A stretch of 64,000 nt of DNA, taken from IMG/VR virus record IMGVR_UViG_3300009702_000024; one strand, 5' to 3'. The notes below the pieces were generated by a model. The model ran no database searches, had not been told where the DNA came from, and saw only the letters and a list, made by a program, of their open reading frames with translations. Position numbers and translations under genes: made by a program. Source of the stretch: an uncultured virus (IMG/VR IMGVR_UViG_3300009702_000024). Its lineage: Duplodnaviria; Heunggongvirae; Uroviricota; Caudoviricetes. Positions 123-64,000 of this stretch are shown piece after piece; positions within the stretch are counted from its first letter, which is position 1; each line of letters opens with the position of its first letter.

Positions 123-207
123 CGAGCGGAGACTGAATTTTAACCTCCACTTTAACCAACCACAATTCAGCCAGAACATTATTATACCCAAGTGACAACC
201 AACTAGT

Positions 208-1920
208 GTGCAAACCAATCCAGAAGATATACCATCTGACATGCCAGAAGGAACGTCCTTCGAGGAAATAAAGAAAATGACCAACAAGTCTTTCATCTTC
301 GAAAAACCAACCGAAAAAGACTCCCCAGAATACAAGAAAACTTACAACTACCTCCTCGAAAATTTCGGGAAGTTCGGAGAGAATAGAGTACTCGCAAGAA
401 ATAGAGCGGGTGACATAATCGACATGGGTGGAATAGATGATGTGGTGTCGTCTGTCGTCCTCGAAGACTCCCAGTATGCGGACTCCCAGCTAGGAGTGTC
501 GCACAAAGTTAAATTCTCATCGCTGTTCGACATGTGGAATTCTGAACCCGGTCTGTCCCAGTCGTTAAATATGAACTCTGAAGTGCCAGTGGCTTACGGA
601 TCTTACTTCGCTTATGAACCAATCCCAAGAGAATTCAAGACAGCAGCAAACCCACCATTCGTCCCACCCTCAGTTGAGTACTGGAACAGATGGGCAGAGT
701 TCGTCCAGTTCAAGCACTTCCAACGTCAGTTCATCCACTCCCTTATAGGAACGGGAAACATGTGGGCGGAGAAAGTATACGACCGATCTGGTATGGTCAA
801 GAAAGGATGGGGAGTCAGAAAATTAAAAGTTCTGTCACCGGATGTCATGTACAATGTCGTTGACGAGAAGGGGAGAATACTCAAATTCGTCCAGTATTCC
901 GGGAACTCAGATCGCTATCTTGGAAAAGATCTCATCATCACAGAGAACCAAGCTAAAGAATTGAGACGGAGAGCTACAGAAGAGAAAACTCTCTACCATG
1001 AGATACCTCGTTACAAAGTTATTTACTGTAACTATAACGCTTACTACGATGACTCGCCATATGGCTTCGGGAGATCAGTGCCGAATGTGGCTTATGCCCG
1101 TTCTAAGATAGGTCTGCAAAAAAAGATACTCAGAATTGTCGAGAATGCATCCATCTCGATGGTTGTCTTTACCTACGGGAATGAGAACTTCATGGTGTCT
1201 GGAAAGTCAGCCACCAAGACATTTGCTAACATCAAGGGTAAACAGCATCTCAAGTTCGTCCTACTGCCTTTTACATTTCAACCTAAAGAAGTGGAATTGG
1301 GGAAGAATGTAGCCAATTTCGAAGGATACCTCAAGTACTTCCAGCAAGAATTGATGATTGGTGCGGGTCTCCCACCATTTTATTTCGGAATGGGTACGGG
1401 AGAGTCTGCGAAGATACAGATGGAATTGCTTGTTAGACAGTTCATGTTCACTCAGCAGATATTCTCAGATGTGTGCAAGAGTCAGCTGTTCGCCGAATGC
1501 GTTCTAGGAGATCCGTCAAAAACGAAGAAGATCATGACCGATGATCCAAAACAATATCCTTACATGCGTCCTTCTACATTCGTATTACTCCCCACATTAC
1601 GACATAATACCATAGAGTCTGTTGCTGATAGGAGGCTGAGGCACGACACATATGGGAAGCTTGGATTGCTGTCAAACAAGGAGATGAGAAGCGAGATCGA
1701 TAGGTACGGATCCACTGACATGAATGATCTCACTCCTTCGTTGAAACTTGAGCAGAGGAGATTGGATATTGAGGAGAAGAAAATTGAAGCTTCTCTGAAA
1801 GTAGCAGAAGCCTCTGCAAAGGCGGCAGCTCAATCAGCGAATAAGACAGCTGACACATCAGCAACTAAGACACCAGCCAAGACAACAACTAAGAAATCTA
1901 CAAAAACTGCAACTAAATAA
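208..1920 (+). CDS. Portal protein
   Basis: 570 aa, first gene of head module before protease and MCP; portal-like segments (LIGTGNMWAE, LKVLSPDVM, SPYGFG, GLPPFYFG, GLLSNKEMR); K/T/A-rich C-terminal tail. Confidence 0.8.
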   Translation: MQTNPEDIPSDMPEGTSFEEIKKMTNKSFIFEKPTEKDSPEYKKTYNYLLENFGKFGENRVLARNRAGDIIDMGGIDDVVSSVVLEDSQYADSQLGVSHKVKFSSLFDMWNSEPGLSQSLNMNSEVPVAYGSYFAYEPIPREFKTAANPPFVPPSVEYWNRWAEFVQFKHFQRQFIHSLIGTGNMWAEKVYDRSGMVKKGWGVRKLKVLSPDVMYNVVDEKGRILKFVQYSGNSDRYLGKDLIITENQAKELRRRATEEKTLYHEIPRYKVIYCNYNAYYDDSPYGFGRSVPNVAYARSKIGLQKKILRIVENASISMVVFTYGNENFMVSGKSATKTFANIKGKQHLKFVLLPFTFQPKEVELGKNVANFEGYLKYFQQELMIGAGLPPFYFGMGTGESAKIQMELLVRQFMFTQQIFSDVCKSQLFAECVLGDPSKTKKIMTDDPKQYPYMRPSTFVLLPTLRHNTIESVADRRLRHDTYGKLGLLSNKEMRSEIDRYGSTDMNDLTPSLKLEQRRLDIEEKKIEASLKVAEASAKAAAQSANKTADTSATKTPAKTTTKKSTKTATK

Positions 1921-1983
1921 TTTTCGCATTGTTCCATTCTCGTTAGGGAAAATCTAATATTACATTTCATACAGTATAAATCA

Positions 1984-3093
1984 ATGAGTACTCAATCAAT
2001 GTCAGCAAATATGATGACGATAACAGAAGAGGAAACTCTCAAAGAGCTGGGTAAACACATAGATACCTTTGAGCTTAAAGTGGATCTTCAGAAGATTGAC
2101 GAGTGGGACAGTTTTGGAGATGACTTGAAAAAAGCTACTATGGAATGGTACGGTCTGAAGAGTTTCAAAGCAGTGAAAGACAGTTACCGAAGAGTCAGTG
2201 GTGTTGGTATCGACACTGGAAGGAACATGAACACATCTTTCAGATACTCGGCAGATGCTTTGAGGTTCATGGTGGATGAGTTCAAGAAGAATATGAGTAA
2301 ACCTCAGTTGAACAATTTTTATCAAGATCATAATATGTGGACAATAGAGGCTTTAATGGGTCGTGTGATGAATTTAGAATTCAAGGCGACTGATAAAAAA
2401 GGGGAGAAAGGTCTCATCCGTTTCGATGCGGTGCTCAACAAAAAACATCCGCTTACAGCACGAGCTGAGATGTTCAAGTCTGTGTCGATGACTGTTCTTA
2501 CGGGTAATTTCACATGTCTCACGTGTAACAATCGAGCACGGGACTGTACGTGTGAGACAATGCAAGAGCAAGATATTGTGGCGAACAAGGGTGCTCTTAT
2601 TGAGCTGTCGTATGTCACTTTTCCAGCTTATCCGAAAGCGTCTGTGGATAAAATAGAGAATTTTTCATCACACGTTCTTGATAGGATTAAGGATGAGTTG
2701 AAGGAGAGAGGTATGAGCACACCGTTCGATAAACCTTTTGATGTGAGTGAGTACAAGGCTGGTATGGATGATGCTTTTATTTCTAAATTTGATACACCGT
2801 ATCTTTCAGTATTTGCTGATGTTATGGAAACTGTAGTGGAGAATAAAGTTTCTCATTTCACGACTAATAATGTTGCATCCAATGTTTCATCTAATGTTTC
2901 ATCTCTCGTTGGAACTTCCACCGATGCTTTTATCGACAATAGAGATGACGATGATGGTGAAGACGAAGATGAAGAGGAAGACGAGAATAATAATGATAGC
3001 TCAGAGGTTGAGAAAGTTATGAAACTTATTTCAATGCTTGAAGTTGTAGACAATTTAAGTAAATTTGACGAGATTTTGGCTGAAAAAAAATGA
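1984..3093 (+). CDS. Prohead maturation protease (HK97-type) with Cys cluster and acidic C-terminus
   Basis: YQDH, SVSM, CLTC..CTC insert, IELSYVTFPAYPKA motif; lies between portal and MCP. Confidence 0.8.
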   Translation: MSTQSMSANMMTITEEETLKELGKHIDTFELKVDLQKIDEWDSFGDDLKKATMEWYGLKSFKAVKDSYRRVSGVGIDTGRNMNTSFRYSADALRFMVDEFKKNMSKPQLNNFYQDHNMWTIEALMGRVMNLEFKATDKKGEKGLIRFDAVLNKKHPLTARAEMFKSVSMTVLTGNFTCLTCNNRARDCTCETMQEQDIVANKGALIELSYVTFPAYPKASVDKIENFSSHVLDRIKDELKERGMSTPFDKPFDVSEYKAGMDDAFISKFDTPYLSVFADVMETVVENKVSHFTTNNVASNVSSNVSSLVGTSTDAFIDNRDDDDGEDEDEEEDENNNDSSEVEKVMKLISMLEVVDNLSKFDEILAEKK

Positions 3094-3121
3094 GATAAAT
3101 ATATTTATCGTCTGTATGACA

Positions 3122-3135
3122 CGAAAAATTTATAT
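3122..3135 (+). promoter_or_regulatory. Archaeal BRE/TATA promoter
   Basis: CGAAAAA-TTTATAT about 27 nt upstream of ATG 3162 (leaderless spacing). Confidence 0.55.
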
Positions 3136-62698: not shown

Positions 62699-62710
62699 AA
62701 CCAATTAAAA

Positions 62711-63118
62711 CTATTCAGATAATTGTTCTGTTTTAATTTTAGACATTCGAGCACTGTTCTCCTCATCGGAGAGATAAGACTTCCATCCTTTATTCTGCCT
62801 ACTTCTACTTACTTTCTGATTTTCCATCCATTCTGTAATAGATTTTTTAGTTATTGGATAACTGTATATTGGTGTGCATGGATCTCCTTCTTTTTTCTGT
62901 CGTACATTCATGCAGTTTGTACAGAGCATTAAACTTCCTCTTTCCTTTAGGGGAAAAGTGTTTTGTACCATCTGTCTTCTTTTCGTCAGAGGGAATTTCA
63001 TGTAATATTCTCTTAAATATTTGACTACTTCTGCAATTGACCCAGCTTTTTGATCTACTTTTGGTTCAACTTTAGGTTCAACAGTTGGTTCAATTTCTTC
63101 TTCATCAGCATCTGGCAT
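62711..63118 (-). CDS. Hypothetical protein with N-terminal EPKV repeats and CxxC
   Basis: 135 aa ORF. Confidence 0.55.
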   Translation of the reverse strand: MPDADEEEIEPTVEPKVEPKVDQKAGSIAEVVKYLREYYMKFPLTKRRQMVQNTFPLKERGSLMLCTNCMNVRQKKEGDPCTPIYSYPITKKSITEWMENQKVSRSRQNKGWKSYLSDEENSARMSKIKTEQLSE

Positions 63119-63172
63119 AAATTACTGTGTGTAGTATCGAAGTATAAATCTTATCACTACAACTTGGACATT

Positions 63173-63526
63173 TCACAACTCGAATTCGAGAGATATTTCT
63201 AGTACATCGTCCTCAATAAAGATCTTTGATGACATACCTTGCCATTTAATTCTACGACTGAATAAAATAGACAGTTCGTTCTGCAAGTGGATGAACACTT
63301 CGCTGAAAATTCTCTCTTTCAGTGGTGATCCATGCCATTTATACACTGTGAGCAAACTTTTAGAATGGATTTCTATAATCTTATTCGTGTAATATATACA
63401 CACAAATGAGAAATCTATCGCTCTATCATCCAGCAATAAGTTAGAAATTTTTATCTGCATACTCTTCAATTTATACATTATCCAAAATGTATTTATATAT
63501 ATCTTTCCACACCTATAATAATGCAA
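63173..63526 (-). CDS. Hypothetical protein (true start probably at an internal Met)
   Basis: ORF; 5' end overlaps divergent methyltransferase start. Confidence 0.4.
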   Translation of the reverse strand: MHYYRCGKIYINTFWIMYKLKSMQIKISNLLLDDRAIDFSFVCIYYTNKIIEIHSKSLLTVYKWHGSPLKERIFSEVFIHLQNELSILFSRRIKWQGMSSKIFIEDDVLEISLEFEL

Positions 63527-64000
63527 GATAGTAAAATTTATGACGATTTTGTACTAATATATGGAGACGCATTCAAATATGTTAGAGGGATACCCAGAAA
63601 AAGTATAAAATTGATTATGACATCGCCACCTTACAACATTGGAAAAGAGTATGAGAAGAAGAAGAAATTCGATGACTACTTATACGATATGCAGAAATTG
63701 ATTGAGAATTTAAAGAACGTTCTTAGAGATGATGGTATTGTAGTATGGCAAGTAGGCAATTACATTGAGAGACGAAGTAATGTGACAGAAATATTTCCTC
63801 TAGATTATTACTTCACAGATATATTCATCTCTGCTGGTTTCAGATTTCTGGAGCGTGTCGTGTGGAGGTTTGGACACGGATTAAATGCCACGAAGAAATT
63901 TTCGGGAAGATATGAAACTTTGCTGGTCTTCTGTAAAGCAGACTACCTTCCTAAGCATCAAATTAGAAGATACAATGACATACCCAATGAGCTGAAAAGT
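63521..64000 (+). CDS. Beta-class amino DNA methyltransferase (BglII-like), cut by window edge
   Basis: Hand translation: IYGDA..LIMTSPPYNIGKEYE..WQVGNY..EIFPLD..WRFGHGL..FSGRYETLL; no stop before 64000. Confidence 0.85.
   Translation, partial: MQDSKIYDDFVLIYGDAFKYVRGIPRKSIKLIMTSPPYNIGKEYEKKKKFDDYLYDMQKLIENLKNVLRDDGIVVWQVGNYIERRSNVTEIFPLDYYFTDIFISAGFRFLERVVWRFGHGLNATKKFSGRYETLLVFCKADYLPKHQIRRYNDIPNELKS

Follow-up and report, generated by a model that had tools for sequence, protein, structure and literature searches.

Restriction-site avoidance, in which a virus loses the DNA words read by host enzymes, has been surveyed in phages by Rusinov et al. (2018). That survey reports that host sites are eliminated, completely or nearly so, in about a tenth of viral genomes, and assigns site avoidance by phages almost solely to orthodox Type II enzymes; it describes Type III sites as very rarely avoided, and Type I and Type IIG sites as not avoided at all (PMC6286503). 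The primary concern of this study is the word CCTG, with its complement CAGG, in the uncultured tailed virus of IMG/VR record IMGVR_UViG_3300009702_000024, from which a stretch of 64,000 bases, here called the window, was analyzed. Like the phages of the survey, this one combines a silent, complete or near-complete loss of short words with the loss of other restriction sites; however, the cases set out in the survey are nearly all palindromic, concern orthodox Type II enzymes, and have a known host enzyme (PMC6286503), while the word lost here is an asymmetric tetramer for which no matching enzyme was found.

Non-palindromic words are also avoided elsewhere. In the relevant part of the description of halovirus Hardycor1 by Dyall-Smith et al. 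(2021), CAGC (0.01), CATC (0.03), and CCAG (0.11) are listed as strongly avoided (PMC7911831). Hardycor1 resembles the phage studied here in the breadth of its purge, with three palindromic tetramers and 22 palindromic hexamers missing, and in carrying methylase genes. It differs in the words concerned, in a purge that is not total (here 0 copies vs about 183 expected), and in being an archaeal siphovirus with 67.8% G+C, according to the same part of that paper (PMC7911831).

Several enzymes are known to read asymmetric words. MnlI, as presented in one portion of a review of restriction, is a Type IIS HNH restriction enzyme (CCTC 7/6), the 4-bp word of which is asymmetric and one base from CCTG, so readers of this kind exist (PMC4081073). 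It differs from what is sought here in that CCTC/GAGG is not depleted in this phage, and in that no such nuclease was seen in this study. The Type III methylase ModA4 likewise reads an asymmetric 4-bp word, CGAG (PMC4525171, motif description). Three other methylases, M.GmeII (TCCAGG, PMC3526280), M.BanLI (RTCAGG, PMC3990576), and ModA9 (CCTGA, PMC4525171), are described in the motif sections of those papers as methylating adenine on one strand of asymmetric words that have the same core as the word lost here; however, their motifs are 5-6 bp long and would spare most CCTG/CAGG, whereas in the window the word has been purged in all flanking contexts. The case probably belongs to a known phenomenon, restriction-site avoidance, and is a very clean addition to the few documented avoidances of non-palindromic words, which the survey treats as rare (PMC6286503).

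Absence of CCTG and CAGG from the window

Direct counting gave 0 copies of CCTG and 0 copies of CAGG across the entire window (1..64000, both strands). The base composition (A 22032, T 20277, G 11067, and C 10624, or 33.9% G+C) predicts 96.6 + 109.4 = 206 copies, while a maximal-order Markov model predicts 63.5 + 91.2 = 155. Of the 256 tetramers, just four are missing from the window: CAGG, CCTG, CGCG, and GGCC.

A third expectation was obtained by shuffling synonymous codons 300 times within each of 62 open reading frames (ORFs), which make up 95.8% of the window. This null preserves all proteins and the codon usage of each gene, and it is conservative because that usage has already been shaped by the purge. 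It gave a mean of 182.8 copies of CCTG/CAGG, with a standard deviation of 10.0 and a minimum of 156, against none observed (z = -18). The window-wide absence claimed by an initial annotation, which had scanned the letters by eye, holds against both the Markov and the codon-shuffle expectation; the depletion is confirmed as real, total, and far beyond chance.

The loss is not a by-product of the avoidance of CCWGG. That pentamer accounts for 37.8 of the 182.8 sites expected under the codon null, and the remaining expected sites, approximately 145, are all gone; moreover, relatives of this phage that have purged CCWGG retain 23-49 copies of CCTG/CAGG. The purge thus exceeds CCWGG, as had been proposed. 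The initial annotation had named two outcomes that would speak against its claim, counts near the Markov expectation and a depletion confined to CCWGG; both were tested and neither was found. Its remark that several other tetramers are common is likewise borne out by the counts: CCAG/CTGG has 308 copies vs 299 expected, and CCGG (65), GATC (256), and AGCT (268) are not depleted either. CCTC/GAGG, the word of MnlI, is also near normal (231 vs 250.9 +/- 10.7 under the codon null).

The absence is uniform with respect to strand and reading frame. When sites are classified by the strand of the gene, the word on the sense strand, and the codon phase, all 12 of the 12 classes are empty. The codon null places 129 of the expected sites in the plus-strand genes of the window and 53 in the minus-strand genes, and none was seen in either; the 2,667 bases of intergenic DNA, where approximately 4.5 copies are expected, also have 0. 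Because both words are missing from both gene strands and from all three phases, the reader of the word sees duplex DNA and not mRNA.

Codon choice around the missing words

The purge is visible in the choice of codon before glycine. Proline in this position is encoded by CCC (25) or CCG (13) and never by CCA or CCT, which are used 355 and 185 times elsewhere. ACA, GCA, and TCA are similarly absent before glycine (elsewhere 682, 329, and 486, respectively), and threonine is encoded there by ACT (47), ACG (12), or ACC (6). The codon-pair table therefore agrees with the initial annotation, which had noted such a bias for Pro-Gly, Thr-Gly, and Ala-Gly pairs. Other codon pairs that would spell either word are avoided in the same manner. 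CAG does not occur before a codon starting with G (0 vs 226 elsewhere) while CAA occurs in that position 148 times, CTG and AGG never follow a codon ending in C, and no NCC codon precedes TGN.

The synonyms used instead roughly track general usage, and no one substitute word is inflated. The purge is achieved entirely through context-dependent synonymous codon choice, with the proteins unaffected. Replacement of the forbidden codon pairs approximately in proportion to usage points to selection on the DNA word, and neither a misread base nor a protein constraint is indicated.

Relatives and environmental strains

An alignment of the large terminase subunit (TerL), comprising 15 sequences, led to five related metagenome loci, four of 12-21 kb and one fragment of 1.5 kb, and the gene content of the relatives was compared within +/-10 kb. 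The four long loci have TerL sequences 45-46% identical to that of the window and the same order of fiber, baseplate, nuclease, and terminase genes. All four have 0 copies of CCWGG, where composition predicts 6.5-11.1, together with 0 copies of GGCC and 0-1 of GGWCC, and retain 49, 42, 23, and 40 copies of CCTG/CAGG vs 66, 65, 33, and 62 expected. The two orientations are interspersed in these loci as coding bias predicts, with no further skew. The 1.5-kb relative, with a TerL identity of 64%, has 2 copies of CCTG/CAGG vs 8.8 expected, a sample too small to judge.

A purge of CCWGG only in the relatives and of every CCTG/CAGG in the window marks the latter as a newer, lineage-specific layer, as would be expected if a new enzyme had been met. 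On these sequences, the family at large avoids CCWGG, and the lineage of the window has extended this avoidance to every CCTG/CAGG. The relatives and the window form a natural before-and-after pair from which the speed of codon rewriting under new restriction pressure could be estimated.

The run from which the record derives is labeled a subsurface metagenome; three biofilm and sediment metagenome runs of a second study contain a strain approximately 97% identical. Contigs of this strain, 32,389 and 37,357 bases long, jointly cover the 20 kb that were compared. Since the strain was assembled in a second study, the sequence is not an artifact of a single assembly. The TerL of the window retains all 62 of the 62 columns that are invariant across the 15-sequence family alignment, and the long ORFs are intact.

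Other words lost from the window

The loss of CCTG/CAGG is accompanied by that of many classical restriction sites. GGCC and CGCG have 0 copies in the window and GCGC has 2. CGWCG (0 vs 23 expected), GGWCC (0 vs 15), and GATATC (0 vs 25) are absent, as are CCWWGG and GCWWGC, and GAWTC is reduced to 5 copies vs 123 expected. CCSGG, with 44 copies vs 31 expected, and GASTC, with 89 vs 70, are not depleted. Of the 64 6-bp palindromes, 26 are missing, 14 of which do not follow from the purged tetramers. Relative to the Markov expectation, almost no copies remain of two asymmetric pentamers, CCCCG/CGGGG (0 vs 12) and ACCCC/GGGGT (1 vs 14), which may be further asymmetric targets; CCCG overall is enriched.

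The window also encodes a Mom-like DNA modification protein (55886..56557, minus strand; PF25680, E 7.3e-39; phrog_1384, E 2.2e-52) and two DNA methyltransferases of the N6/N4 class. The first of these (61319..62698, plus strand) matches PF01555 (E 2.8e-19) and, over its full length, the PADLOC model MTase_II PDLC03322 (E 1.6e-85). The second (63521..64000, plus strand), which is truncated by the end of the window, matches PF01555 (E 7.1e-15) and MTase_II (E 3.5e-27). Taken with the Mom-like gene and the pair of methylase genes, the broad purge of words shows that the restriction pressure on this phage is both heavy and varied. Methyltransferase 1 is likely to be an orphan anti-restriction methylase, as judged from its sequence, and the Mom-like gene gives the phage a second device against restriction and is not the cause of the purge.

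The selective loss of GAWTC is explained by a plain GAWTC-specific enzyme. Mom-type adenine modification has the motif S-A-S-N-Y. Protection of GASTC by the Mom-like protein, with only GAWTC left to be purged, was considered and dropped, since several viral loci with Mom-like proteins are themselves poor in GASTC. Among low-G+C viral contigs of this kind (L033 and L035-L043), each has 0-1 copies of GGCC, and GASTC is scarce (2 vs 9 in L033, for example).

Possible readers of CCTG/CAGG

The word loss is probably restriction-site avoidance directed against a nuclease that is present in the host population and reads asymmetric CCTG/CAGG on unmodified duplex DNA. The phage would meet this nuclease, specific for the word in double-stranded form, in the hosts that it infects, and synonymous codon choice would have removed every CCTG/CAGG, so that the enzyme would be left without a target. 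The enzyme would most likely belong to the orthodox Type II class and have an asymmetric site, being of the IIS or IIA kind and comparable to MnlI with its CCTC site. This class is favored because avoidance by the surveyed phages, in the passages of the survey already cited, is almost wholly of that enzyme class (PMC6286503). We infer three separate points here: the identity of the reader as a nuclease, its origin in the host, and its enzyme type.

The initial annotation had also proposed a host defense or DNA-targeting system that reads a non-palindromic 4-bp motif, and had called such a motif unusual for restriction targets. An asymmetric 4-bp target is supported by a purge that extends beyond CCWGG, is symmetric with respect to strand, and is silent, while a place for the system in the host is only probable; the remark on restriction targets was overstated, given MnlI (CCTC), ModA4 (CGAG), and the words avoided by Hardycor1. 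An isoschizomer of MnlI itself is ruled out as the reader by the near-normal count of CCTC/GAGG.

Silent and total loss of approximately 180 sites is strong indirect evidence for an enzyme, and predicts a restriction specificity, or another DNA-targeting one, for CCTG/CAGG, a recognition site that is asymmetric and 4 bp long. Such an enzyme may be sought among microbes from the subsurface, biofilm, and sediment samples in which the phage occurs, and new 4-bp cutters are useful reagents.

Several points weigh against a host restriction enzyme. No host was identified for the phage. No enzyme or methylase of exactly CCTG/CAGG specificity was found in open-access papers and bioRxiv, and because REBASE was outside the scope of the search, calling the specificity undescribed is provisional; in this literature the word turned up only as part of longer motifs (CCTGA, TCCAGG, and RTCAGG). 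The restriction review does not include CCTG or CAGG as words (PMC4081073), and no CCTG/CAGG motif is listed in motif table S4 of Blow et al. (2016), where all 10 of 10 matches to "cagg" are locus tags (PMC4752239). The contig that carries the terminase gene of the window is 72,211 bases long, and its final 8.2 kb, which lie beyond the window, could encode a phage-borne nuclease. Finally, the strain of the second study gives little power: no change that creates CCTG/CAGG is among the 40 listed of 902 variants, where less than one would be expected, while the full set of 721 substitutions in one run would be expected to include approximately 13.7.

A host Type III restriction-modification system, with one-strand methylation at the A of CAGG and cleavage between inversely oriented sites, is unlikely, although the word would suit it: CAGG has a single A, and the short asymmetric words of Type III methylases are marked on one strand. 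M.GmeII, ModA4, and ModA9, introduced above, are described as reading words of this kind or length (PMC3526280, PMC4525171, motif sections). A Type III enzyme would already be escaped with sites in a single orientation; here the count is zero in both orientations, which lowers the probability of this type, and the relatives have no skew of orientation beyond that of coding. The rarity of Type III site avoidance in the survey passages (PMC6286503) points the same way. An orthodox Type II enzyme is more likely than a Type III enzyme acting on the A of CAGG.

It is equally doubtful that the phage carries its own CCTG/CAGG cutter, whether to shred the DNA of its host or within a phage-borne restriction-modification system, and is safe because it has no site. 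There is room for such a gene among the ORFs of the window without an assigned family (53635-54810, 58687-59778, 62711-63118, and 63173-63526) and in the 8.2 kb of contig outside it; in addition, an HNH gene is present, and the two methylase genes flank two small ORFs on the opposite strand. However, no family of restriction nucleases or C5-methylases was found by Pfam in 61 of the 62 ORFs (the 62nd being TerL) or by NCBIfam and PADLOC in 27 accessory ORFs. The HNH_3 protein (58156..58506, plus strand; PF13392, E 3.3e-14) is a small endonuclease of the homing type (PADLOC "homing endonuclease", E 8.3e-16), and nothing about it indicates recognition of CCTG. A search of the ESM Atlas with ORF 58687-59778 returned no informative neighbor (predicted local distance difference test (pLDDT) of the model 0.39), a sequence search of the PDB with ORF 53635-54810 had no match below E 0.1, and ORFs 62711-63118 and 63173-63526, which lie on the minus strand between the methylases, have no visible nuclease motif. 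The latter two were also considered as one broken gene, which was rejected since they share a frame but are separated by two stop codons. A single phage-borne enzyme would also leave approximately 20 other purged classical sites unexplained. Slightly less probable again is the more specific proposal that a nuclease reading CAGG/CCTG travels on viruses, shreds host DNA, and is tolerated because the carrier genome is free of the word, its gene lying among the unassigned ORFs or in the remaining 8.2 kb.

The Mom-like protein was examined as another phage-borne cause and is ruled out. Among 37 other viral loci in IMG/VR with a Mom-like protein 31-50% identical to that of the window, none is depleted in CCTG/CAGG (0 of 37), the lowest ratio being approximately 0.67.

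It is very improbable that CCTG or CAGG is the protospacer adjacent motif (PAM) of a host CRISPR system, the removal of which would blind every spacer. Spacers can target either strand, so a lost PAM would be missing in both orientations, as is the case here; the accompanying purge, however, strikes classical palindromic restriction sites, which argues for restriction enzymes as the source of pressure. PAM depletion published for phages is weak.

Least credible of all are avoidance of CCWGG only, a sum of longer sites, mutational bias, and a sequencing or assembly artifact at a modified base, for although CCWGG contains the purged words and is purged by the relatives, and the Mom-like and methylase genes make it probable that the phage DNA is modified, CCWGG covers only 38 of the 183 expected sites, the 12 empty strand and phase classes exclude every flanking context, very-short-patch repair and deamination of 5-methylcytosine, which act on contexts of the CCWGG type, would not clear CCTG everywhere, a misread base would inflate one neighboring word while CCAG is near expectation and several synonyms are used instead, and the intact ORFs, the conserved TerL columns, and the strain assembled in the second study speak for a sound sequence.

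Genes of the phage

The genes of the window are those of a novel tailed phage and include a set for a contractile tail. Megablast against 50,697 phage records gave no match, and the nearest TerL and family B DNA polymerase sequences from cultured phages are 22-27% identical. In IMG/VR, no relative of TerL above 39% identity and no relative of methyltransferase 1 was found. Taxa that match methyltransferase 1 in the ESM Atlas are spread across many phyla, and a sequence search of the PDB with this protein gave only weak matches to N4/N6 methylases. A search of genome contigs gave only distant matches in Actinomycetes (23-24%). Both methylases have the motif SPPY, as read by eye from the translations; this motif is more typical of N4-cytosine methylases.

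The following genes were assigned with PHROGs and Pfam. A structural and packaging module occupies 208..34918 on the plus strand, where it accounts for part of the approximately 129 sites expected in plus-strand genes, and contains genes for the portal (208-1920), a protease-like protein (1984-3093), the major head protein (4363-5472), the spike tip (19518-19937), a fiber protein with FN3 domains (26147-30829), and TerL (33344-34918). It is followed by a minus-strand block (34915..53442), which accounts for part of the approximately 53 sites expected in minus-strand genes and encodes a tail fiber (34915-37368), baseplate J (38026-40287), a PD-(D/E)XK nuclease (41376-42263), a helicase (43150-44880), and a family B DNA polymerase (44932-48600); a Sak4-like ATPase is also among the replication genes. 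The polymerase ORF, at 1,222 amino acids, is long for its family. Its Pfam exonuclease and polymerase domains span residues 235-658 only, leaving the N-terminal 230 and C-terminal 560 residues as flanks with no assigned domain.

No tRNA genes were found in the window. Matches of archaeal type, all below threshold, occur at 40803-43129 and 56601-57415 and include a Tfx DNA-binding domain, an MJ0042 zinc finger, a RadA helix-hairpin-helix, and a Cbp1 helix-turn-helix; on these matches, the host could be archaeal.

Inside the tail module, an ORF at 20567-21349 (plus strand) has a helix-turn-helix and a weak LAGLIDADG-like match; together with the HNH_3 ORF it would make two likely homing endonuclease genes. 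Two adjacent plus-strand ORFs without a family, 60246-60737 and 60752-61129, resemble tandem paralogues, sharing by eye the strings MPP(N/H)SH and NTVTIH. In the FN3 fiber gene, the strain that is approximately 97% identical has, at window positions 27724-27800, a diverged patch of 75 bases that is equal in length to that of the window, while the gene is otherwise near-identical; this may be a hypervariable receptor-binding patch.

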